A stretch of DNA of 64,000 nt from a plasmid: the sequence record NZ_KX443399.1. The stretch is one strand, 5' to 3'. The position numbers were made by a program, and so were the translations under genes. Positions 39,194 through 54,330 of this stretch are shown in pieces. The notes under the pieces were generated by a model, which had not been told where the DNA came from, ran no database searches, and saw only the letters and a program-made list of their open reading frames with translations. Every line of letters begins with the position of its first letter. Within the stretch, counting starts at the first letter, position 1.

Positions 39194-40641
39194 CAGCGGC
39201 GGGCCATCATCGCGTAGGTGGCCAGCAGTGCGGTCAGTGCGGCGTCTTCGGCCGCGGACATCGTGGAGATCGACTGCCGCTGCACCCAGGCCAACCGCTC
39301 GGCGATCGCCGCCTGCACGTCGGGGTGTCCGGCGGCCGGGGTGAGGCCGACGCGTTCGGCATCAGTGGTGCCGAGCAGGATCCGGTTCAGTTCGTCGACG
39401 ACGGGGGAGTCGGGGTCGGCGGCGAGCATGCCGCGCAGGCACCCGAACAGCACGACGTCATCCATCACCGGTTCGCGGCGCACCTGGTGGACGATGAGCC
39501 GGATGTGGTCGCGCTGGGGGTGGGTGTAGGCGAGCTGCTCGAGCTCGTGGACGATCCGGCCGGCGCGGTGGATCGCGGCGAACCGGCCCAACGTCTGGTG
39601 CAGGACCTGCTGCAACGTCGCGATCCCGGAGCGGTCGGAGAGCCACTGGTTCAGCGCGTGCGCGCCGCCGGTGGCGGCGCCGCGGCCGCGGATTAGCCCG
39701 TATTCGCCGACCAGGTCGAGCAGCCGGTCCCGCAGCTCCGGGGTCAGCGGGGCGGGAGTGTCGGAGTCGACGAGGTCGATCAGCTCGAACGGATCCAACC
39801 CCGCGAGGGCGGCGACGGCGCGGGCGTCGGCCTCGGTGAGCCGGCCGGTGTGGCTGGTCTCGGCCAACAGGCCCGCGACCGGAAGCACGGTCAGCACGGT
39901 GCCGTCGAGGGCGCGGGCGAGGGTCTGCGCGTACTCGTGGGCGTGGCCGAGCGGATCACGCTGCCCGAGCGCGCCTTCCCCGAACCCATCCGCGCGCGAC
40001 AGCACGCCCAATGTGTTGAGCGGGGTGAATCCGAGCTGACGCAGAAAGCTGATCTCGTCGGCGCGCGGCACCGAGTCGAACAGGAACACCGCGGCATCGG
40101 CATCGACGGAGGCGGAGCGGGTCTGCTCGAACCCGTCGATCAGCGCCCGCCGGGTTGCGGCGTCGTTCTCCACCGTCAGGGTGGCGAGGCCCGGGGTGTC
40201 GATCAGGGCGAGGTCGCGGATCGCGGCTGAGGGCAGGAACCGGTGCACGTAGGCGATCTCGGTGACTGGCCGGCCGAGGTCGGTGGCGTGGCCGCGTTCG
40301 ATCGGACGCTGTGTCCGCTGGCCGTCGAGGCCGACGACCTCAATCCGCGAGGGTGCCCCGTCCTGGTAGACGGCGACGACGTTGGTGGCCTCGAGCGCCG
40401 CGGTCTCGGCGACCGGCGCCCCGATCAGCGCGTTCACCAGCGTCGACTTGCCCGCCTTCAACCGCCCGACGACAACCACCCGGGGCGGTGACCACAGCGT
40501 CCGGCCGATCCGGTTCGCGTGCGCGACCAGATCCCCACCGAGACCGGCGAGGGCGTGCAGGCTCCGGTCGAGGACCGCACGCACCGGATCGAGCACCGGC
40601 TGCCCCGGCGGCAACTGCTGCGGGATGCTCGGATGCACCAT
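39193..40641 (-). CDS. Bacterial dynamin-like GTPase
   Basis: P-loop 'GRLKAGKSTLVNALIG' and switch 'DTPG'. Confidence 0.7.
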   Translation of the reverse strand: MVHPSIPQQLPPGQPVLDPVRAVLDRSLHALAGLGGDLVAHANRIGRTLWSPPRVVVVGRLKAGKSTLVNALIGAPVAETAALEATNVVAVYQDGAPSRIEVVGLDGQRTQRPIERGHATDLGRPVTEIAYVHRFLPSAAIRDLALIDTPGLATLTVENDAATRRALIDGFEQTRSASVDADAAVFLFDSVPRADEISFLRQLGFTPLNTLGVLSRADGFGEGALGQRDPLGHAHEYAQTLARALDGTVLTVLPVAGLLAETSHTGRLTEADARAVAALAGLDPFELIDLVDSDTPAPLTPELRDRLLDLVGEYGLIRGRGAATGGAHALNQWLSDRSGIATLQQVLHQTLGRFAAIHRAGRIVHELEQLAYTHPQRDHIRLIVHQVRREPVMDDVVLFGCLRGMLAADPDSPVVDELNRILLGTTDAERVGLTPAAGHPDVQAAIAERLAWVQRQSISTMSAAEDAALTALLATYAMMARR

Positions 40642-42546
40642 CTATGCCACCCCCGCAGTGCTGGTGGCCGGCGCCTGCGCGGCCGCGGTCAGCTGGGCGA
40701 TGACGTTCTCGATCTCCTGGCACTTGGTGGTGATCACCCGCTGGTTCTTCGACAGCCGAGTGACCGTCGCCTCCCGGGTGGCTGCGTCGAGGCGGGCAGC
40801 TTCCTTCGCGTCGGCGATCTGCGCCTGGACCTGCTCCATCGTCGTCTTCACATGGTCCCGGTAGCGGATGACGATCTCGGGCCGGCTCATCGACAGCGTC
40901 GCCTCGAGCATCCGGGCCGTCGTCAAGCGGGCGGTGGCCAGGGTTTCCCGCAGCCAGGACAGCAGATTCGACTTCCCGCTGCGCATCGCCTTCCAGCCCA
41001 GGTTCACCCCGACCCAGACGACCCCGGCCACCGCGCCGACACCGATCAGCGCGCCGAGCATGCTGGTGCCGATCATGCCCATCGTCAAGATCGACGGATC
41101 CAACAGCCCCTGACGCTTGCTGGCCACCTCACCGGTCGTCAGCCGCGGATCCAGCGATGCAATGACCTGCTGCTCGATCTCCGCCCACACGACCTCGGAG
41201 TCGAACAGTTGCATGACGATCGCCCGGACGCCATCGAGGAACGCCTGCACGGCGGCGGTCATCGCGCCCTGGAGATCCTTTTCGATCTGCGCGGTGAAGT
41301 GCTGCGGATTGCGTCGCAGCACCGCCATCCCGGACTTGTTGATCGTTGTCGTCCACCGGGCCTTGATCTCCTCGAGGCGTTCGTCGAGCACCGCCAGCGC
41401 GGCCTGCCGGGCGAGGGTGAGGTCCCTGCCGAGATACTGCTCCCACTGCCCGGAGTGGTCCTTCAGCTCCTGAAGCCGGTCTCGTTCGGCGGTCAGCTCC
41501 GGCAACGCGGCACCGGAATCCTGCGCGATCGCGATGTCGGCGGCGTTCTTCGCGTTGATCTTCCGCAGCCCCTCGAGCGCGGTCCGCAACCCGTCGGCGG
41601 CGGGCAGCGCGGCTCCGAGGTCGAGCCGAGCGCGGATCTCCGCCCGTAGCTCCGCGATCCCCGAGGCCCGTTCCCCGGCCAGGCGGCGGGCCGGATCGGC
41701 GTGGTCGGCCGCGGCGAGCGCGCGCAACGAGGACACCCCGATGACCGGGATCTGCCTGCGCAGATGCTCCTGAAACAGGCGGCGGTTCTCGGCGGCGATC
41801 GGCTGCCACCGCCGTAGGTTCTTGTCCGTCTTCGTCACGGCGACCACGACGGAATCCACTGTCGCCGAGGCACCGCGGATGAACTCCATTTCCGGCGCCG
41901 TGAGCGGGGTCGTCGCATCACACACGACCACGAGCACGCACGCGGTTTCGGCGGTGCGGGCGGCGAGCTGCGCGTGCGCCGGATCCAGACCACCCGCACC
42001 GGGGGTGTCGACGACGACCGCGCCGCCGAGAAGGTCGGTCGCGGTGGCCACCACCGCACCGGTCGGCAGCACCTCGGTGCCCGGGTCGACCACGCGCCGC
42101 CCGCTGGTGGTGATCCAGTCGGCCAGCTCGGCGCGGTCGATGCGCTGCACCCCGCCCGGGATCAGCAGCTCCGCGGCGCCGGCGGGGAGGGTGTCGGTGG
42201 CCGGGACGAAGTGCACCGTCGCCGACGTCGACGACGCGACATCGACCGGGGACGCCCCACGCTCTCCGATCAGGGCGTTCACCAGCGACGACTTTCCGCG
42301 CTTGACCTCACCGACCACGACCACCGACCGGGTTTGGGTGTCCGCGCGTGCCTTCGCTTCCGCGAGATCGGCGGTCGCCGCGTAGCTGTATTTCCGCAGG
42401 ATCGACACCGCCGACGTGAGCACGGATGACGCCTGGTCATCGAGAGAGAGGCTGGTCGGTGCGGTCGATAGTGCAGGCACGGCGGCAGCCGACGACGCGA
42501 CAGATCCCCCAGACGATTCCACGACACTTCCCCCAGATGGTCCCAA
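40642..42546 (-). CDS. Bacterial dynamin-like GTPase (second member of the pair)
   Basis: P-loop 'GEVKRGKSSLVNALIG', 'VVDTPGAGG', followed by a long alpha-helical stalk. Confidence 0.7.
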   Translation of the reverse strand: MGPSGGSVVESSGGSVASSAAAVPALSTAPTSLSLDDQASSVLTSAVSILRKYSYAATADLAEAKARADTQTRSVVVVGEVKRGKSSLVNALIGERGASPVDVASSTSATVHFVPATDTLPAGAAELLIPGGVQRIDRAELADWITTSGRRVVDPGTEVLPTGAVVATATDLLGGAVVVDTPGAGGLDPAHAQLAARTAETACVLVVVCDATTPLTAPEMEFIRGASATVDSVVVAVTKTDKNLRRWQPIAAENRRLFQEHLRRQIPVIGVSSLRALAAADHADPARRLAGERASGIAELRAEIRARLDLGAALPAADGLRTALEGLRKINAKNAADIAIAQDSGAALPELTAERDRLQELKDHSGQWEQYLGRDLTLARQAALAVLDERLEEIKARWTTTINKSGMAVLRRNPQHFTAQIEKDLQGAMTAAVQAFLDGVRAIVMQLFDSEVVWAEIEQQVIASLDPRLTTGEVASKRQGLLDPSILTMGMIGTSMLGALIGVGAVAGVVWVGVNLGWKAMRSGKSNLLSWLRETLATARLTTARMLEATLSMSRPEIVIRYRDHVKTTMEQVQAQIADAKEAARLDAATREATVTRLSKNQRVITTKCQEIENVIAQLTAAAQAPATSTAGVA

Positions 42547-42672
42547 CCCCGCGCGGATCCCCCAGTTGATCCACGACCGTCCTAGAGGCTAACCACCCCG
42601 CCCGGAAAGCCGTGCAGGCGGCCCAATTGCGCAGGCACCGCACGAACCAGAAGGGCCGGACAGGCGATCTCG

Positions 42673-42709
42673 GGAACCTTCTCGTGGCCGATTGCATCTG
42701 ACTGAGTGA
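42673..42709 (+). promoter_or_regulatory. ECF-type promoter, copy 3
   Basis: GGAACCTTCTCGTGGCCGATTGCATCTGACTGAGTGA. Confidence 0.6.
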
Positions 42710-42759
42710 CGCGATCGGAAGAACCGTCCTCGCGAACTTCGGAAGGAATCGAGCAGGCC

Positions 42760-43341
42760 ATGACTACTCCCGCACCGCAGAACACCGGCACCACGAGCGA
42801 GTCGAGCATCCCGGAGGCGACGTTCTCGTTTGGGGCGTCGGGCTCTGTCGCGGGCTCGTCGGTCGATGCGTTCGAGGTCGACCTGAGCGACATGCTCGAT
42901 GGCCCGGGTTCGAGCGAGGTGTCGATGCAGTCCTTCGATGGCGGTATCGCTGCCGGGGGAGGGATTTCGGTCGGGGGCGGTGTCGAGGTCTCCATCGGCG
43001 CACCGGGCGGGATCCCCGAGGTCAGCATCGACGCGGGCGGCCAGTTCGCCGCCGATGGCCAGTACGGGGCGTACGGCAGCTACGACGATGTCGACCTGAG
43101 CGTCGACGCCGACACCGGCGAGAGCGAGGTGTCGATCGACTCCGCTGAAGCTGGGCTGTCTGGGTACGGAGGTGCGGCCGGCGGCGTCGAGTTCGGTGTC
43201 GATCTCGGTGTGAGCCCGCTCGACGCTGTCCCGGAGGTCGCTGTCGATACCGGGTTCGAGTTCGCCGCGGACAACGGATTCGACATCGGTGGCGGCTACG
43301 AGCACGTCGAGATCACCCAGGACGACGGCGCCGCGATGTGA
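42760..43341 (+). CDS. Acidic Gly/Ser/Asp-rich repetitive protein
   Basis: Repeats of 'VS.D...GG...'. Sits 50 bp downstream of ECF promoter 3. Confidence 0.45.
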   Translation: MTTPAPQNTGTTSESSIPEATFSFGASGSVAGSSVDAFEVDLSDMLDGPGSSEVSMQSFDGGIAAGGGISVGGGVEVSIGAPGGIPEVSIDAGGQFAADGQYGAYGSYDDVDLSVDADTGESEVSIDSAEAGLSGYGGAAGGVEFGVDLGVSPLDAVPEVAVDTGFEFAADNGFDIGGGYEHVEITQDDGAAM

Positions 43342-43358
43342 CAGGGCAGCGCATTCCC

Positions 43359-43396
43359 GGGAACCTTTTGCCTTCTCGCTGCATCAGACCTTGTGA
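43359..43396 (+). promoter_or_regulatory. ECF-type promoter, copy 4
   Basis: GGAACCTTTTGCCTTCTCGCTGCATCAGACCTTGTGA. Confidence 0.6.
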
Positions 43397-43487
43397 GCAC
43401 CAAAACCGGGGGAGCGGACCTGCGCCGCGCGTAGCGCGCATCGGCCCGCCGAGCTGCACGAACGAACACCTACGGAGGGAAGAGACG

Positions 43488-44699
43488 ATGCGAGTGAAGA
43501 TCGCACCGATAGCTGCGGCCGCGGCCGCCACGGCGGTCCTGTTGACCGGGTGCGGCACCGGATCCGCTGACGAGCCGGCGCCGGAGCAGGTGGCGGGCGA
43601 CGTCGCGGTGGTCGATGCGAGCATCCTCGACACCGGCGGCTTCCGGACCACCCCGCAGGCGCAGTTCACCACGATCGGTGACGACTTCCGGGGCCGCTCG
43701 ATCGAGGGCCAGCGGATGGCCGAGTACGTGGTCAATCCGATCGAGATCGACCCGCAGCTGACGGACCTGACCGAGATGTCGACGTACGTCATCAAGGACG
43801 GCAAGTCTCTGAGCACCCTGCTGCCGGACCCGATCCCGCAGGCCGCCGTCGACAACGGCATGCTCGCCGGGTTCTCCTCGGCCCGCTCCACGGCCGGCCG
43901 CGAGGACGATCAGTCCCTGATCAACGCCGTCCTCCGATTCCCGGACGCCGCAACCGCGCAGAAGGCCGCTACCGCGCTGCACGAGGCGACGATGACCACC
44001 GACTACGGCGCCGGGCTGCCGCAGGCGGGTGCGATCGACGTCCTGCCCAGCACGCTGGTCAGCAACCGCGAAACGGCCGGTGAGATCGCCACCAACGCGT
44101 TCACCCCGTACAACGAGTACGTCCTCTACCAGTGGACGAACACCCCCGTCGCGGAGAAGGACTGGGCGGCGAAGACCATCGCGAAGACCGTCCGCGATCA
44201 GGGCCCGCTGATCGAGAAGTTCGCGGCCACCGCGCCGGGCGACTTCGCGAACATCAAGGTCGACGTCGACAGCGTGCTGCGTCTGACGATCCCGACCGAG
44301 CGCACCTCGACGAGCGAGTTCGCCGTCTACGGCCCGCGCGGCGCTTCGCACTTCGCGAACGATCCGGCCACCAAGCTCGCGATGTTCGAGGCCACCGGCA
44401 CTACCCGCCAGGCCGTCGACCAGACCACCGTCTACCTCTCCCAGACGGAAGAGGGCTCGAAGAAGCTCGCCGAGCAGATGGGCGCTGCCTTCGAGACCGG
44501 CAGCGGCCTGACCCCGACCACGGCGCCGGCGAACGTCCCGAACGCCAAGTGCTGGACCAAGGACACCCCGCAAGGGGTGGGAACCAAGTGCCTCGTTCAG
44601 CACGGGCAGTACGTCGGCGAGATCACCACGATGGACAACGAGAAGCAGGCCCACCAGCTCACCGCCGCGCAGTACCTGATTCTCACCTCGCCGAAGTGA
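43488..44699 (+). CDS. Lipoprotein (403 aa)
   Basis: 'MRVKIAPIAAAAAATAVLLTGCGTGS' contains a lipobox. RBS GGAGGGAAGAG. Confidence 0.65.
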   Translation: MRVKIAPIAAAAAATAVLLTGCGTGSADEPAPEQVAGDVAVVDASILDTGGFRTTPQAQFTTIGDDFRGRSIEGQRMAEYVVNPIEIDPQLTDLTEMSTYVIKDGKSLSTLLPDPIPQAAVDNGMLAGFSSARSTAGREDDQSLINAVLRFPDAATAQKAATALHEATMTTDYGAGLPQAGAIDVLPSTLVSNRETAGEIATNAFTPYNEYVLYQWTNTPVAEKDWAAKTIAKTVRDQGPLIEKFAATAPGDFANIKVDVDSVLRLTIPTERTSTSEFAVYGPRGASHFANDPATKLAMFEATGTTRQAVDQTTVYLSQTEEGSKKLAEQMGAAFETGSGLTPTTAPANVPNAKCWTKDTPQGVGTKCLVQHGQYVGEITTMDNEKQAHQLTAAQYLILTSPK

Positions 44700-46457: not shown

Positions 46458-47243
46458 TCAAGGTTTCGTTCGGGTGGTGCCCCAGTCGAAGCCGAGGTTG
46501 TCGAGTTCGGTGATGCGGTCCGGGGTGAGTGACGGGCGGCCGTGGCGGCGGTCGACGCGGCGGGTGGTGACCCATAGCCCGAGGCGGAATCCGTCGGAGC
46601 AGGTGAACCGGTGGGGGACGCGGGCGTGCCCGTGCTCGGCGACGTAGTCGGAGAGATGGGCGACAGCGTTCGTCCACCTCTGCTGCTCGACCGTTGCGCG
46701 GCCCGTTGCCTGGCCCCAGTCGAACCCGAGCGCGTCGAGATGGGCGATCCGCTCGGGGGTCAAGGTCGGGGTCTGGCTGCGTCGTTCGGTGCGGCGCCGG
46801 CTCACCCATGCTCCGAGTCGGAATCCGTCCTCGCATACCCAGCGGTGCGGCACGTCGAGGTTCCCGTGCTCGTCCCGGTACCGGGTCAGGCGCGCGAGAG
46901 TGGCGGCCCACTGCTCGGCGAAGCCGTCGACGGAGCGGCCGGGCCGGGGTGGCGCCCAATCGAACCCGAGCGCGTCGAGCTGCGCGATCCGCTCCGGTGT
47001 GAGGCGGTTCGCGCCGAGGCGGCGGTCCTCGCGGCGGTGCATCACCCACGACGCCAACCGCATCCCGTCCGCGCACACGTACCCCTTCGGGACGCGGGCG
47101 TGGCCGTGTTCGGCGATGAACGCCTCGAGGTGCGCGATGCCGTCCGCCCACAACTGCGCTGGTGTCTTCCCGGCCCGCCTGTCCGGTCGGGCCGGCACCA
47201 TTTCCGGATCGGTGGTGGCCGCGGCCCGGGGTGCTACTCGCAC
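46458..47243 (-). CDS. Helicase-associated (HA) domain repeat protein
   Basis: Three repeats of 'W...HL..F...HGHARVP....C.DGFRLG.WV..RR......LTPERI..LDALGFDW'. Confidence 0.7.
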   Translation of the reverse strand: MRVAPRAAATTDPEMVPARPDRRAGKTPAQLWADGIAHLEAFIAEHGHARVPKGYVCADGMRLASWVMHRREDRRLGANRLTPERIAQLDALGFDWAPPRPGRSVDGFAEQWAATLARLTRYRDEHGNLDVPHRWVCEDGFRLGAWVSRRRTERRSQTPTLTPERIAHLDALGFDWGQATGRATVEQQRWTNAVAHLSDYVAEHGHARVPHRFTCSDGFRLGLWVTTRRVDRRHGRPSLTPDRITELDNLGFDWGTTRTKP

Positions 47244-48300
47244 GCGACGCCGTCGTTGTCACGGTCGAGCTTGCTGCTGTAGCCGGGCTCGCCGCGCATG
47301 ATCGGTGCCGCGCCGGCCGCCCGGGCGGCGGCGCAGTTCGCGTACGAGACACCCGCCCCGCTCGGCGCCGGCGCAGGTGCGGGGGCGGGCGCCTGCTCGC
47401 GGACCGGCGGCGCTGGCGCGGGGGCCGCGGTGGTCGGCGCAGGAGCGGCTGCCGGGACCGGTGCGGGTGCGGGGGAACCGGTGCAGGAGGCGAGTTCGCG
47501 TGCGATCGCATCCTTCTCGGCCTGGGTCATCCACAGCCCGTACTTGAGTTTCACCTCGAACTGGCGCGTGACGTAGGTACACCGGTACGCCTTGTTCGGC
47601 GGCAACCAGGTCGCGGCGTCGCCGTCGCCCTTCTGTCCATTGGTAGGGCCGTCGACGGCCTGCAAGTTCAGGGGATCGTTGGCGAAGTTGCGGCGGGTCT
47701 GCTCGTCGAACTGCTGAGCACCCTTCTGCCACGCATCCGAGAGGGCGACGATGTGGTCGATCTGCACGGCGTTCGAGGTCCCCTCACCGCGGGTGAACGC
47801 GATCGTCCGGCCGGTGTAGGTGTCGTTCAGTGTGCCGGTGAGGACGGTGCACCCGTTCGATCCGGGCTTGATCGTGATGTCGACCAGGTCCCGGCGCAGG
47901 ATGTCGTTGCGGTATCGCAGCCGTTGTGCCCGCCCTCGACGGTGACATCGTCGGACCATGCCTGCCCGAACAGTGCCCGGTCGTAGCCGGTCTTCGGCGC
48001 CCTGCCCTTGACCGGGATCGCATCCAACGTCGCAGCGGCCGCCCGCAGAGCGTCGTCGTCGCTGACCTTGAGCAGGGGAGTGGGCGGCGGCAACGCCGTC
48101 TCCGACGACGACACGACCGCGCTGGTCGTGGCGCCCGAGGCCGCAGACGACGTGGCAGCCACATCCGGCTGCGCGTCCGCGTCCTCGCACGCGGTCAACG
48201 CCAGCACCGCGGCCGCGGATACAGCGGCGGCGATCAGTGCGGTGCGGGCACGATGGGCAGCTGCCCGGTGCGGGCGTAGCGAGGCGAGAGCAGACAACAC
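47234..48300 (-). pseudogene. Secreted lipoprotein nuclease (DUF1524 HNH-like plus C-terminal Excalibur Ca-binding domain) with a 1-nt frameshift
   Basis: The N-terminal frame has a lipobox 'LALTAC' and '...GGHNGCDT'. The downstream frame continues 'RNDILRRDL...VQIDHIVALSDAW...NLQAVDGPTNGQKGDGDAATWLPPNK' and ends with the Excalibur motif 'DRDNDGVACE'. The sequence reads ACCGCAAC where ACCCGCAAC would keep the frame. Confidence 0.55.
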
Positions 48301-49587: not shown

Positions 49588-50558
49588 CTAGTGTCGTCCG
49601 GGGAGATCGACATCGCGCGGCGACTTGTCGTCGCGCAGGCCCTTCCACGCGGGGTGCCGCAGACTTCCGCCGGCGTACTCGCGGAACTCGACATCGCCCA
49701 CCAGTTCGGGCTCGACCCAGTGGGCTCCTTTGGTGTCCCGGGTGGGCGGCGGTGCGGCGAGGGGGCTCGTCGGTCGCTCCAGCTGTGTGAGCTGAGCGCG
49801 CAGGGCCCGTCGGCCGGCACCAGTGAAGCCGGTGCCGACGTGCCCGATGTAGGTGAGCTGGCCATCACCGTCGTACGCGCCGAGTAGCAGCGATCCGACG
49901 CCGCCGCGGGCGCTGCCGGTCCCGTCGACCCAGCCGACGACGACGGCCTCGGTGTTCGCGCGCAGCGGGTGCTTGATCCAGGTAGGAAAGCGGCGGCCCG
50001 GGCGGTAGGTGGAGTCGATGCGCTTGGCTACCACGCCCTCGAGGTGGTGCTCGCGGGCCAGGTCGAGCATCCGGTCACCTCCGACATCGGTCCAGTACGG
50101 CGGGACCTGTACCCGCGGCCCGGAGAAGCCGAGCGCGTCGAGGTCGGCCCGCCGCTCGACGTACGGCAGCGAGGTAGTGGAGTGGCCGTCGAGGGAGAGG
50201 ACGTCGAACAAGTAGAGGACCACCGGAACGTCGGCCCGGAGCGCGGTGGTGGGCCGCAGCACGTGCATCCGGCGCTGGAGCCGGCCGAACGAGGGCCGGC
50301 CCTTCGCGTCGAGGGCGACGATCTCGCCGTCGAGGATCGCGTCGCGGCCGTCGAGGACATCAGCGAGCGGGTCGACCAGCTCGGGAAAGCGGCAGTGATG
50401 TCGTTGCCGTTCCGACTGAACAGGCGGCTGGAACCCGAATTGACCTGAGCAATTGCCCGTTGGCCATCCCACTTCATCTCCCACGCCCAGCCCTCGCCCT
50501 CCGGCAGCTGGCCGAGCGTGGCCAACATCGGGGACGGCACCACCGACGGCGAGGGCAT
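49588..50558 (-). pseudogene. ATP-dependent DNA ligase (LigC/LigD ligase-domain type) with a 1-nt frameshift
   Basis: The N-terminal frame has motif I 'EMKWDGQR'. The C-terminal frame has 'DGEIVALD', 'LEGVVAKRIDSTYRPGRRFPTWIKHP' and an OB domain. The sequence reads TTCCCGAGCTGG where TTCCCGGAGCTGG would keep the frame. Confidence 0.6.
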
Positions 50559-50699
50559 ACCCCGAGTCTGCGGGAAAGGCGTTCGGGCGGAGGCGGAACG
50601 GTGTGATCGGCTGCGCGACTGGGGACCTGTCGTCTCCGCAGGTCAGGATCGGCGTGTAGGAGCTGATGATGCGAATTTTACAATCCGCCAACGCCTTCG

Positions 50700-50735
50700 G
50701 GTTGCAACATCGCAAGGAACACCTGTAAGGGTATT
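50700..50735 (+). promoter_or_regulatory. Conserved sigma-70-like promoter/operator cassette, copy 3
   Basis: GGTTGCAACATCGCAAGGAACACCTGTAAGGGTATT. Confidence 0.5.
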
Positions 50736-50761
50736 GGCGTACCCAACGAGAGGAGATCGCG

Positions 50762-50908
50762 ATGACCGCGACGATCGAGCAGGCCACCAACCGCTACCGC
50801 GCCGCAATCCAGGGCGACGACCAGGCGGAGTTCATCGCCGCCAAGAGTGCGCTGATCGAACTGAAGACCGGCACCACGCTCACCGGCGATCAGGCCGCCT
50901 ACATCTGA
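50762..50908 (+). CDS. Small ORF (48 aa)
   Basis: RBS GAGAGGAG. Downstream of the conserved promoter cassette at 50700-50735. Confidence 0.3.
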   Translation: MTATIEQATNRYRAAIQGDDQAEFIAAKSALIELKTGTTLTGDQAAYI

Positions 50909-50989
50909 TCCGGAGGGCCCCGCACCAGCGTGCGGGGCCTTTTCACTAGATCAAAGACGACGTAAGATGAACGAAGATGGAGGGGAAAC

Positions 50990-51424
50990 ATGGGACGTTC
51001 AATCGCAGAGCTTGCTGAGCAGATCGCCTCGGCCGCCCACGACGGGCAGGTCGACAAGGCGGGTCGGCCCTACATTGCGCACCCGGCTCGTGTCGCCGCA
51101 CGCGTGGCTGGTGACGAACGCGCCGTCGCGGCCGCCTGGCTGCACGACGTCGTCGAGGACACCAGCGTCACGCTCGCCGAGCTCGAGGAAGCGTTTCCGC
51201 CGGAGGTGACCGTCGCCGTCGACGCGCTCACCCGCCGCCGCGGCGAGGAGCCGGCCGACTACTACGCTCGTGTCCGCCAGGTCCCGCTGGCGCTGACGGT
51301 CAAGCTCGCCGACCTCGACGACAACAGCGACCCGCAGCGCCTCGCGCAGCTCGACGCCCCGACCCGCGACCGCCTTACCACCAAGTACGCCCGCGCCCGG
51401 GCTGAGCTGACCGCGGGTGTGTAG
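50990..51424 (+). CDS. Small alarmone hydrolase (RelA/SpoT HD-domain protein)
   Basis: 'AHDGQVDKAGRPYIAHPARVAARVAGDERAVAAAWLHDVVEDT' is the (p)ppGpp hydrolase HD motif. 144 aa. Confidence 0.75.
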   Translation: MGRSIAELAEQIASAAHDGQVDKAGRPYIAHPARVAARVAGDERAVAAAWLHDVVEDTSVTLAELEEAFPPEVTVAVDALTRRRGEEPADYYARVRQVPLALTVKLADLDDNSDPQRLAQLDAPTRDRLTTKYARARAELTAGV

Positions 51425-52223
51425 GTCGGAGGAAGGGGGCGGCCGCAGATGCACCGATCACCGACGACTCCAGTCGAAGTCGCTCGACGATCTGCGCCCC
51501 GACCCGGCCCCAGGCCGCCCGGACGTCGACTGGGCACACGACCCGGCCAACGCCCCGGAATACCTGTACGAGACCTACCCGACCTACGTCGCCGGGATCG
51601 TCGTCGACATGATGGCCACCGCGAAGCAGCAGGAGTCGCAGATGACCTCTGACGTGCTCGACGCACTACCCTCCGATGCCCGCATGCACGGCCTCGAGTT
51701 CCGTATGAAGAGCCCGGACTCCCTCGCCCGCAAGCTCAACGACCGCTGCGAGAAGTCGCCCATGCGCGATCCGGAGCACATCGCCGACGCGATCACCGAC
51801 GTCGTCCGCTACACCGCGATCTCCGACCCGGACCGAGTCGTCGCGACCGCCCGCACGCTGGCCGACCGCCTCATTGAGCGCGGCTGGACGATTACCGAGG
51901 TCGAACACTCCTACCTCGACGGCAACCAGTACAAGGGCCTGCACCTGCTCGCCCGCCACTCCAGCGGCCGCGTCGCGGAGTTCCAGTTCCACACCGAGGC
52001 ATCGCAGAACGTCAAGGACGCCACCCACGTCGACTACGAAGCCGTCCGCGACCCGCGACTGCCGCTCACCGAGCGGGCCGCGCTGGTGGAGAAGATGACT
52101 GCCGTCTGGGCTCAGGTACCCACCCCGGCCGGCGTCCCGGAGCTGACCGAACTCGGCGGCTGCAAGGTCGCACCGAAACGCTACGCACCACCGAAGACGA
52201 ACCGAGGAAGGGACGCACAATGA
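51417..52223 (+). CDS. RelA/SpoT-synthetase-like nucleotidyltransferase (small alarmone synthetase / toxSAS-like)
   Basis: 'GLEFRMKSPDSLARKL', 'ITDVVRYTAI', 'YKGLHLLARH...VAEFQFHTEAS' align with the G-R-K-S, D-x-G-R, Y-x-S-x-H and E-Q-RT motifs of the synthetase domain. The start overlaps the hydrolase stop by 8 nt. Confidence 0.65.
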   Translation: MCRSEEGGGRRCTDHRRLQSKSLDDLRPDPAPGRPDVDWAHDPANAPEYLYETYPTYVAGIVVDMMATAKQQESQMTSDVLDALPSDARMHGLEFRMKSPDSLARKLNDRCEKSPMRDPEHIADAITDVVRYTAISDPDRVVATARTLADRLIERGWTITEVEHSYLDGNQYKGLHLLARHSSGRVAEFQFHTEASQNVKDATHVDYEAVRDPRLPLTERAALVEKMTAVWAQVPTPAGVPELTELGGCKVAPKRYAPPKTNRGRDAQ

Positions 52224-52777
52224 GCCTCTACATCGTCAGCGACCACGGCCAGGACCAGTGGCTCGCCTACGTGGACACCGAAAACCCCGGCGTCTACGCC
52301 TACGTCGCGAACCTCGGCCGCTTCGTCTTCCACCGGCCCCTTGGCGAGGACTTCTACATGGACCGCGAACTCGACTGGACCCCCGTCAACGCCGAGGTGG
52401 CGCGAAAGACCATCACCGATGACGTACTCGGCAAGCTCGACGGCCGCCGCCACAGCGACTTCCTGACCAGGCTCGAGGCCGAGCCAGACCAGCGCTCGGT
52501 CGAGGACGTCTTCGGCGCCCAACCGGTCACCGACCTCAACCCAACCCCGCAGCAGCAGGCCGAAGCAAAACTCAAAGCGCTGGCGAGCACGCGGCCCGGC
52601 GAATGGCTCACCTGGAAGCTCTACGACCGCGGCCGCCGGCAGCTCGCGAGCGTCGCAGCCCGAGACCTGCGCACCGGGAAGATCGCCGCAGTCCGAAAGT
52701 CCGGCCTGCACATCGACTCCCGCGTCACACCCACCGCAGACGGCCGACTCGCAGTCGAGATCGCACGAACCGCGTAG
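52220..52777 (+). CDS. Hypothetical protein, third gene of the hydrolase-synthetase operon
   Basis: ATGA start/stop overlap with the upstream gene. Confidence 0.45.
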   Translation: MSLYIVSDHGQDQWLAYVDTENPGVYAYVANLGRFVFHRPLGEDFYMDRELDWTPVNAEVARKTITDDVLGKLDGRRHSDFLTRLEAEPDQRSVEDVFGAQPVTDLNPTPQQQAEAKLKALASTRPGEWLTWKLYDRGRRQLASVAARDLRTGKIAAVRKSGLHIDSRVTPTADGRLAVEIARTA

Positions 52778-52830: not shown

Positions 52831-54330
52831 ATGAACGCGTCATCGAGCGCAAGTCCAGCTGAGGCCAAGACTGCACCGTCACAGGTGGACGATGGAGGCG
52901 ACGCACCAGCGGAGCCGGAGAAGAAGTCGCGGTATCCATTTGTCCGCATCGCGCTGTACGCAGTCGGGGCCGGATTCACCGCCGCCGTCCTCTGGTGGAT
53001 AGCCGCCGAATGGGCAACCGCAGACGGCAGCAACGTGTGGTGGGAGAAGTGGCAGTGGTGGGGAGTCGCACCCATTGTCGCCGCCGTCGGGGCGACGGTT
53101 GCGGGGCTTGTATGGGTGTACCGCAAGTCGGACCGTGCAGGCCCGGACGAGGACGGGCTCTCGTTGTTCAGGCTCGTCATCGCGGGTGTGCTCGCTGGGG
53201 TGGTCATGATGATCGCTCTGGTGTGGTTGCAGGCGGAACTCTTCACCGCCCCAGGGGCATCCCTCGTGTCAATCGGCGGCCGCGAGACCCTGAACATCGT
53301 TCGGTCTTCCGCCTTCGCAGTCGGCGCGCTCGGCGCAGTCGCCGTCCTGATCGTCAACTACCGCAAGCAGAAGTCCACCGAGGCTGCACTCGTACTTGAC
53401 CGCGGCAAGCACGCTGACCTGTTTCAGCAGGCGCAGGACAACCTGTCGCTCGACCGTGAGAAGCACGCTGATCTGTTTCAGCAGGCGCAGGACGACCTCG
53501 CGCATGAGCGCCAGAAGCACGAGAAGCAGATGGAGCTCGAGAGGGCTAAGCAGGCGGCCAGCGATGCCGCAGCACTGCACGATCGCTTCTCGAAGGCCGT
53601 GGTCCAACTTGCAGACGATAAGCCGGCCATTCGCCTGGGAGGCGTCTACGCAATCGCGGGCGTTGCTACCGACTGGCAGCTGAAGAACAACTTCCTCCAC
53701 CTCCAGGCGTGTGTGGATCTGCTCTGCTCCTACCTGCGCAGCGTCCCGTCAATGTCAGACAAAAAACGACTCGCCTTCACAGGTGTTGATGACGACGCCC
53801 ATGCGCTCGCCCTCGATCGCGACGTGAGAAAGGCAGCTCTCGAAGCGCTCAGCACTCTCGGGAAACCCGACAGCGAACGCAGCAGCATTGCCCAGTTGGT
53901 GCGGAAGTGGACACAGGAGACAATGGCGCCCCTCGTGGGGGAGGCGCCCAAGCTGGCGGTGGATCTGCACGGGGCCTCATTCAGGAATCTCGATCTGCGG
54001 AACGCACGTCTCGCCGGTTTGAACCTCTCGAATACCGACTTCCGCGGGGCGGAGCTTGCAGGAGCGAGCCTCGCCCGAGCGAATCTCTCCCGAGCGGATT
54101 TCGACCAAGCGAACCTCTCCGGAGCGATCCTCGCTCGAGCGACCCTCACAGGAGCGAACCTTACGAAGGCGAACCTCACCCGTGCGAACCTCGCCGGCGC
54201 CACCCTCTACGGCGCAAAGGTAGATGGTGCCAACTTCTACGAGGCCAGGGGACTCGACACGATGAAGCCCGGTGTCGACAAGTTGCGGGCCGAAGGCGGC
54301 CTCAACCTGCCCGAGCAGGATGACGACTAG
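52831..54330 (+). CDS. Membrane protein with C-terminal pentapeptide repeats (paralog 1 of 3)
   Basis: Four TM helices, a coiled-coil, 'AVVQLADDKPAIRLGGVYAIAGVATDW', 'LCSYLR', then repeats such as 'ANLSRADFDQANLSGAILARATLTGANLTKANLTRANLAGATL'. Confidence 0.7.
   Translation: MNASSSASPAEAKTAPSQVDDGGDAPAEPEKKSRYPFVRIALYAVGAGFTAAVLWWIAAEWATADGSNVWWEKWQWWGVAPIVAAVGATVAGLVWVYRKSDRAGPDEDGLSLFRLVIAGVLAGVVMMIALVWLQAELFTAPGASLVSIGGRETLNIVRSSAFAVGALGAVAVLIVNYRKQKSTEAALVLDRGKHADLFQQAQDNLSLDREKHADLFQQAQDDLAHERQKHEKQMELERAKQAASDAAALHDRFSKAVVQLADDKPAIRLGGVYAIAGVATDWQLKNNFLHLQACVDLLCSYLRSVPSMSDKKRLAFTGVDDDAHALALDRDVRKAALEALSTLGKPDSERSSIAQLVRKWTQETMAPLVGEAPKLAVDLHGASFRNLDLRNARLAGLNLSNTDFRGAELAGASLARANLSRADFDQANLSGAILARATLTGANLTKANLTRANLAGATLYGAKVDGANFYEARGLDTMKPGVDKLRAEGGLNLPEQDDD

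Follow-up and report, generated by a model that had tools for sequence, protein, structure and literature searches.

In Cellulomonas marina, the toxic small alarmone synthetase (toxSAS) FaRel is encoded by the middle gene of a three-gene operon, preceded by the small alarmone hydrolase (SAH) ATfaRel and followed by AT2faRel (PMC7229694, PMC11782079). FaRel, which drains ATP and GTP while producing ppApp and ppGpp, is neutralized by ATfaRel, an effect abolished by the substitution D54A, and more weakly by AT2faRel, which acts on its cognate toxin only (PMC7229694). AT2faRel is composed of two domains: the N-terminal one is enough for neutralization of the toxin, and the C-terminal one, which is pZFD-like, is dispensable and maybe sensory (Dominguez-Molina et al. 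2024, PMC11782079). In the Apk2-BcTis1-Aph1 system of Bacteroides caccae, a (p)ppApp-type synthetase is likewise accompanied by one structural and one enzymatic protector, of which Tis1 is always there and the SAH is sometimes absent (PMC10083569). A third synthetase, SaEAS of Streptomyces albidoflavus (structure 8VX3), makes (p)ppApp and (p)ppGpp and is toxic if kept in the cytoplasm (PMC12691689). Here we analyzed a stretch of 64,000 nucleotides of the plasmid record NZ_KX443399.1, referred to below as the window, in which the three genes at positions 50990-52777 had been proposed, from the sequence alone, to be a candidate toxSAS toxin-antitoxin (TA) module with an SAH antidote (the original prediction). 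Every computational test agreed with this proposal.

The window belongs to a pVAPN-type virulence plasmid of Prescottella (Rhodococcus) equi, as had been supposed, and is 97.9% identical at the nucleotide level to P. equi pVAPN1572. All three genes are on the plus strand: gene 1 (50990-51424; 144 aa, ATG start) codes for a predicted SAH of the Aph/PbcSpo type, gene 2 (51417-52223; 268 aa, GTG start) for a stand-alone RelA/SpoT-type synthetase, and gene 3 (52220-52777; 185 aa, ATG start) for a protein that none of the domain and family libraries scanned recognized. The end of gene 1 overlaps gene 2 by 8 nt, and that of gene 2 overlaps gene 3 by the four nucleotides ATGA (52220-52223). The open reading frames (ORFs), with their coordinates, lengths and overlaps, are exactly those first described, and the identical three coding sequences (CDS) are found in the RefSeq annotation of pVAPN1572.

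By analogy, the module matches the FaRel design point by point. Both are actinobacterial and consist of three tightly overlapping genes in the same order, the last of which codes for a protein without database annotation that has, or in the case of gene 3 is predicted to have, two domains. The hydrolase-first layout of three genes, which had been put forward as unusual, is that of the published FaRel operon and is not new (PMC7229694, PMC11782079). The view of an SAH antitoxin as a general hallmark of toxSASs also proved too broad: it is specific to FaRel and Apk2/Aph1, most toxSAS antitoxins being non-enzymatic (PMC7229694). There are also differences from the C. marina operon. The module described here is plasmid-borne and its family is often found beside parA, unlike FaRel, and AT2faRel has been described as Tis1-like and pZFD-like, whereas neither fold was detected for gene 3. 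We consider it probable that the triad is a tripartite toxSAS of the FaRel type, in which gene 2 is a toxic synthetase of (pp)pApp (± ppGpp), gene 1 degrades its product and the N-terminal domain of gene 3 binds gene 2, and that it serves plasmid maintenance, abortive infection or both.

Synthetase and hydrolase

The SYNTH (RelA/SpoT-type pyrophosphokinase) domain of gene 2, the predicted toxin, comprises residues ~66-244 (51612-52148). Against the Pfam family RelA_SpoT (PF04607), gene 2 scored 21.5 bits, below the cut-off of 27 bits. This sub-threshold score was outweighed by the match to a solved SYNTH domain, that of SaEAS (8VX3), which was found with an E-value of 1.2e-21 using the single sequence and of 1.3e-28 using the family profile, and the SYNTH fold was assigned to gene 2. 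No other PDB sequence was detected with either query. The motifs of gene 2 are F-R96-M-K98-S99...S102...K106, D128-V-V-R131-Y, Y172-K-G-L-H176, and E188-F-Q-F-H-T193, in agreement with the four RelA/SpoT-homolog patterns R-x-K-x-x-x-S-x-x-x-K, a catalytic Asp plus Arg, the G-loop Y-x-x-x-H, and E-x-Q-x-(R/H)-T. The last two had been correctly recognized in the original prediction, while those given as G-R-K-S and D-x-G-R really read F-R-M-K-S and D-V-V-R-Y, although gene 2 does have the motifs that were meant. Residues R96, K98, S102, K106, D128, R131, Y172, H176, E188, and Q190 are invariant in 15 relatives, and K173 nearly so. Judged from its sequence, gene 2 is a catalytically intact synthetase and is closest to the known toxic alarmone synthetases. 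No similarity to Tas1 was detected by HMMER; Tas1, of the Tas1/Apk1-Tis1 system of Pseudomonas aeruginosa (6OX6), differs from gene 2 in being fused to PAAR/Rhs delivery domains, in being secreted and in having no hydrolase partner. A PADLOC match of gene 2 to LmuC (E = 5e-4, over 60 residues) was judged spurious.

The SYNTH domain is preceded by an N-terminal extension (residues 1-65; 51417-51611) that is conserved in relatives down to ~33-45% identity. It carries two motifs, M-C-x-S-(C)-x-x-G-G-R-R-C-x-D-H in the region of residues 1-18 (51417-51470) and P-D-V-D-W. Although the statement that gene 2 has no regulatory domains holds for those of the TGS/ACT type, it had overlooked this conserved extension of ~65 aa. 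The relatives of gene 2 almost always start with GTG (the same position was checked in loci L002-L041), and the second Cys of the N-terminal motif was lost in the Rhodococcus clade. With the exception of residues 3-9, the extension is ordered in the joint model of genes 2 and 3 presented below. The Cys motif, of which there is no mention in the FaRel literature examined, could be a small metal-binding knuckle.

Because SaEAS, its nearest solved relative, is an exported alarmone synthetase, gene 2 may also be regarded as an effector that would be delivered to other cells, for example along with the conjugative plasmid by a type IV or type VII route, to act as an interbacterial or anti-host toxin against which genes 1 and 3 would confer immunity. 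Streptomyces homologs without signal peptides have been reported beside Trw conjugation genes (PMC12691689), and pVAPN is itself a conjugative virulence plasmid (PMC5434932). Gene 2 also matched XopAD type III effectors and MuF "head morphogenesis" proteins, both of which are known to carry Apk-like alarmone synthetase domains (PMC12691689, PMC10083569); only the C-terminal SYNTH part was matched. In addition, the conserved Cys-rich extension could be a recognition signal. The N-terminus of gene 2 is, however, hydrophilic and contains no Sec or Tat signal in its sequence, and none of the LXG/WXG, PAAR/Rhs, MuF, DUF4157, and SKWP domains was found with Pfam, NCBIfam, and PADLOC. SaEAS has a Sec signal peptide and is on its own in the genome, without immunity genes, whereas gene 2 has no such signal, a different N-terminal extension, and two partner genes. 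Apk2, for its part, is the C-terminal domain of a prophage MuF capsid protein, while gene 2 is a stand-alone plasmid gene and gene 3 is not detectably related to Tis1. No secretion-system genes recur beside the triad in the 41 loci described in the next section, where parA and defense or TA genes recur instead, and a leading hydrolase gene with tight translational coupling is what TA operons typically show. Delivery of gene 2 to other cells is thus quite unlikely, and we return to a toxin that would act in the cell that produces it.

The assignment of gene 1 to the HD-type hydrolases was borne out by its match to Pfam HD_4, which exceeded the gathering score (E = 4.5e-11), and by its metal-binding and catalytic residues H17, H52-D53, E56-D57, D108, and N112, which are invariant in 26 partner hydrolases. 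Among solved proteins, its closest relative is Aph1 of B. caccae (7SMG, E = 1.2e-23), which does not belong to the (p)ppGpp hydrolases and is a (p)ppApp-specific hydrolase with a specificity signature of six residues: D24, R96, D116, R119, K133, and Y134 (PMC10083569). All six positions are kept in gene 1 (D22, R94, D114, R117, K132, and Y133 in the HMMER alignment), and they are retained in 25-26 of the 26 distinct hydrolases that accompany relatives of gene 2. The length of gene 1, 144 aa against 149 for Aph1, is compatible with the compact Aph fold of eight helices, which is tetrameric and in which the additional helices of (p)ppGpp hydrolases are missing. Gene 1 is a clear homolog of Aph1, which adds to the likeness between this module and the Apk2 system.

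Gene 1 also matched phrog_990 (E = 2.6e-48) and the metal-dependent phosphohydrolase gp220 of Salmonella phage PVP-SE1 (43% identity, E = 4e-23). The SAH of PVP-SE1 has been placed in the PbcSpo subfamily along with ATfaRel (PMC7229694); the tentative link of gene 1 to PbcSpo assumes that gp220 is the enzyme of that study and draws on this match. Taken together, gene 1 is predicted to be a hydrolase of the Aph/PbcSpo type and a (pp)pApp-degrading, type IV-like antitoxin. Within the triad, phage homologs are numerous for the hydrolase only. A phage origin was considered and rejected for gene 2, no relatives of which were found in 2.9 million viral contigs.

Conservation of the triad and the product of gene 3

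Linkage was evaluated in 42 sources, the window and 41 loci, with hidden Markov model (HMM) searches for the hydrolase (HD), the synthetase (SYNTH), and the gene 3 family (G3); the single-protein genome scan contributed three Rhodococcus loci only. In 29 of the 32 loci with enough flank, HD, SYNTH, and G3 were found on one strand, down to a synthetase identity of ~33%. The HD-SYNTH junction was -8 or +2 to +6 nt and the SYNTH-G3 junction -4 or -1 nt in most related loci. The named hosts are Rhodococcus, Prescottella, Clavibacter sepedonicus (pCSL1), Curtobacterium flaccumfaciens, and Streptomyces plasmids. A permuted order, SYNTH-G3-HD, with intergenic gaps instead of overlaps, was observed on a linear plasmid of Streptomyces sp. 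NBC_00637 (L040, 5061-6978).

When a gene of the triad was missing it was always HD (in L010 and in the fusion loci L012 and L013) and never G3. G3 diverges faster than the synthetase, with 27-37% identity against 42-45% for SYNTH. In this sample, gene 3 has the sequence characteristics of an obligate, faster-evolving partner of the synthetase. There is a parallel here to the Apk2 system, as G3 is kept where HD is lost in the same way as Tis1 is relative to the SAH, and the permuted Streptomyces triad shares the order Apk2-Tis1-Aph1.

Among the sampled loci and records, the family is mainly located on plasmids and mobile-element-like contigs of Actinobacteria. A gene for a ParA-type partition ATPase lies directly upstream, in divergent orientation, in five loci, L027 (2731-3438), L028, L029, L032, and L041 (3710-4414), and within 2.8 kb in two more, L006 and L039, which brings the total to seven. 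The divergent ParA neighbor is a trait of a subclade of the Clavibacter/Curtobacterium type and is not the arrangement of pVAPN; in that subclade it is a hint of a role in plasmid stability. The other neighbors include type I restriction-modification genes, Shedu SduA, a VapC/helix-turn-helix (HTH) pair, GmrSD-type nucleases, and AbiEi. No mention of the module on pVAPN or on plasmids of plant pathogens was found in the searchable literature.

A word-indexed search with gene 3 retrieved relatives from Rhodococcus and Prescottella only, while the exhaustive profile search gave at least 150 representative clusters and separated two homology units, residues 1-100 and 105-185, which are also found apart. 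One relative comes from Microbacterium, and the diverse alignment of the family has no conserved stretch of 7-10 residues; a third homolog search, run with the gene 3 alignment, contributed little among the candidates evaluated. The N-terminal domain (residues ~1-100; 52220-52519) occurs alone, in tandem, and in fusions. The C-terminal domain (residues ~105-185, with the stop codon; 52532-52777) is a separate homology unit with the secondary structure order a-b-a-a-b-b and possibly has an auxiliary, sensory or regulatory role. Neither a profile search nor two fold searches detected gene 3 as a relative of Tis1 or pZFD, both of which were rejected. No convincing structural neighbor of gene 3 was obtained, and Tis1 and the pseudo-zinc-finger antitoxins were not among the structural neighbors.

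The most informative relative is P0135, in which a synthetase similar to gene 2 is fused to the N-terminal domain of gene 3 only, the C-terminal domain being missing. It was present on two independent metagenomic contigs (L012, 5001-6143, and L013, 5001-6143), with no hydrolase gene nearby, and by analogy with CapRelSJ46 may combine toxin and antitoxin in one fused protein. P0135 adjoins MoxR/VWA and peptidoglycan-peptidase genes. Other architectures were also observed in the gene 3 family: P0105 consists of four tandem N-terminal domains, and P0069, P0064/P0067/P0073, P0079, and P0145 present, respectively, a C-terminal fusion to a LuxR-type HTH, C-terminal basic tails rich in Lys, Ala, and Pro, a fused P-loop ATPase, and a HAD-like domain placed ahead of the N-terminal domain.

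When gene 3 was modeled alone, confidence was moderate, with a predicted local distance difference test score (pLDDT) of 81.6 and a predicted template modeling score (pTM) of 0.50. When genes 2 and 3 were modeled as a single chain, the pLDDT was 92.2 and the pTM 0.80, all five models reached at least 89.5, and the pLDDT of the gene 3 part rose to ~94, against ~80 alone. A defined complex is suggested by this far more confident joint model, and the N-terminal domain of gene 3 is predicted, from the modeling and from its occurrence alone, in tandem, and in the fusion P0135, to be the unit that binds and neutralizes the synthetase.

The same observations bear on a further explanation, according to which genes 2 and 1 would be a non-toxic signaling pair that tunes (p)ppGpp/(p)ppApp in the way of RelP/RelQ and an SAH, with gene 3 as a regulator and without killing. 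Such a pair would also consist of a synthetase and a hydrolase. It fits poorly, though, with the predominance of the sampled family on actinobacterial plasmids and mobile-element-like contigs, with the much greater proximity of gene 2 to the toxic SaEAS than to RelP/Q, and with the presence of an obligate, fast-evolving partner and of a natural toxin-partner fusion, both typical of TA and immunity systems. Moreover, TA-like operon architecture predicted toxicity in 5 of the 5 subfamilies tested, in contrast to the non-toxic RelP and RelQ (Jimmy et al. 2020, PMC7229694). A non-toxic function is therefore very improbable, and a toxic gene 2 held in check by its partners is the reading retained below.

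Proposed mechanism and its limits

In the proposed FaRel-type mechanism, gene 2 would be constitutively active and transfer pyrophosphate from ATP to the 3'-OH of adenine, possibly also guanine, nucleotides. The resulting (pp)pApp, with or without ppGpp, would drain ATP and ADP and block purine synthesis, and growth would stop. Two co-translated partners would keep gene 2 harmless: gene 1, an enzymatic, type IV-like antidote, would strip the 3'-pyrophosphate off the product, and gene 3 would act as a type II-like antidote by using its N-terminal domain to contact the synthetase directly. Its C-terminal domain would be accessory and could sense a trigger. On plasmids, the module would most likely be a stabilization (addiction) element, an abortive-infection element or both.

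Several points weigh against this interpretation. The likeness to the C. marina operon is drawn from its published description and from residue positions; the residues mutated in the published work, FaRel Y175 and ATfaRel D54, do fall within the ranges of the triad family, 170-179 and 53-59 (the equivalent Tyr of FaRel2 is 128), but this agreement is circumstantial. Acceptor specificity is not readable from the sequence of gene 2, since K154 of SaEAS aligns with the invariant Glu163 of gene 2 and N169 with His176; the pairing of K154 with E163 was obtained by counting residues in the alignment of gene 2 with SaEAS, using the numbering of PMC12691689. The joint model of genes 2 and 3 is based on an unpaired alignment, with the two proteins joined artificially by a covalent link, and was judged by its pLDDT and pTM. 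Lastly, SAHs can also reverse the pyrophosphorylation of tRNA (bioRxiv 2021.04.30.441581), and a hydrolase partner alone therefore does not fix the substrate of the toxin.

This last point leads to a tRNA-targeting toxSAS, in which gene 2 would pyrophosphorylate tRNA, gene 1 would reverse this, and gene 3 would be both antitoxin and phage sensor in abortive infection. The features that characterize such toxSASs, namely relatedness to FaRel2, CapRel, PhRel, or PhRel2 and a pZFD/PAD1 antitoxin with a YxxY motif, were not found in this module, and we regard this chemistry as unlikely. The original prediction had offered both chemistries; what can be read from the sequences favors (pp)pApp synthesis, and the tRNA alternative is the less favored of the two.

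If active, the FaRel-type module would be a (pp)pApp-based addiction or abortive-infection device for pVAPN and other actinobacterial plasmids, including those of Clavibacter sepedonicus, which causes potato ring rot, and Curtobacterium flaccumfaciens, which causes bean wilt, and would help to explain plasmid persistence. It would also bring the examples of the tripartite FaRel design to two, this one being plasmid-borne. The comparison bears on why one toxin needs two different antidotes and on what is sensed by the auxiliary domain of the second antitoxin, questions for which the fusion of the synthetase to the G3 N-terminal domain and the stand-alone and tandem G3 N-terminal domains are useful starting material.

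No new principle is revealed by the triad; the more novel possibilities lie in the Cys-rich extension that the toxin carries and in gene 3, as a new family of antitoxins. More tentatively, and with considerable doubt, gene 3 might be the founder of a family of toxSAS antitoxins that is new, has two domains, and bears no relation to Tis1 or the pseudo-zinc-finger antitoxins, its N-terminal domain clamping the synthetase and its C-terminal domain sensing a trigger, for example a phage protein or the loss of the plasmid. In that case the Cys-rich extension of the toxin might add metal- or redox-dependent control, and the triad might be a common maintenance or defense device of virulence plasmids in Actinobacteria pathogenic to animals and plants (R. 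equi pVAPN, C. sepedonicus pCSL1, and plasmids of C. flaccumfaciens).

Expression signals and neighboring genes

Upstream of the module, on the plus strand, a GC-rich hairpin with a 12-bp stem followed by UUUUC (50914-50946) was identified, with a predicted RNA folding energy of -30.2 kcal/mol (z = -5.7); none of 200 shuffled sequences was equally stable. It was missed by a simple terminator scan because its T-run has only 4 T. From its structure, the hairpin is the likely terminator of an upstream ORF of 48 aa and would thereby mark the 5' boundary of the transcription unit of the module. A Shine-Dalgarno-like GGAGGGG (50979-50985, plus strand) is read 4 nt upstream of the ATG of gene 1, and another, GAGGAAGGGA (52204-52213, plus strand), within the 3' end of gene 2, before the ATG of gene 3. 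Because of the hairpin and of these sequences before genes 1 and 3, the triad looks like a translationally coupled unit of its own. The G+C content of the module is 66-70%, matching the surroundings, which gives a recent foreign origin no compositional support.

Just upstream, on the minus strand, an ATP-dependent DNA ligase is split over two frames (49588-50790 and 50028-50558). The short ORF contains the start of the adenylation domain, including K-W-D-G (PF01068 positions 19-60), and the long one positions 55-202 and the C-terminal domain; the split ligase is probably a frameshifted pseudogene. There is no CDS at this site in the pVAPN1572 listing. Farther upstream, at 2.8 kb, a minus-strand gene (47234-48190) codes for a protein with a GmrSD C-terminal nuclease domain and an Excalibur calcium-binding domain; in a metagenomic locus that is unrelated (L014, 165-974), the triad also has the gene of a GmrSD_C protein as its immediate upstream neighbor.

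Downstream, on the plus strand, a gene at 52831-54330 codes for a membrane-anchored pentapeptide-repeat protein of 499 aa and contains a 54-nt tandem repeat in 2.1 copies (53407-53521). Its ortholog in pVAPN1572 is 36 aa shorter, and the copy number appears variable; on other plasmids, the gene is not a conserved neighbor of the triad. A cluster with genes for a dynamin-family protein, a GTPase, and an Hsp70-family protein lies at 817-5888 of the pVAPN1572 locus (L001), which by offset corresponds to about 39500-44600 of the window, on the minus strand. The dynamin-family protein and the GTPase weakly match LeoBC/LeoA of the Eleos defense system (E = 1e-10 and 3e-6), and the annotation places an AbiV-family gene downstream of the triad, at a distance of ~9 kb.

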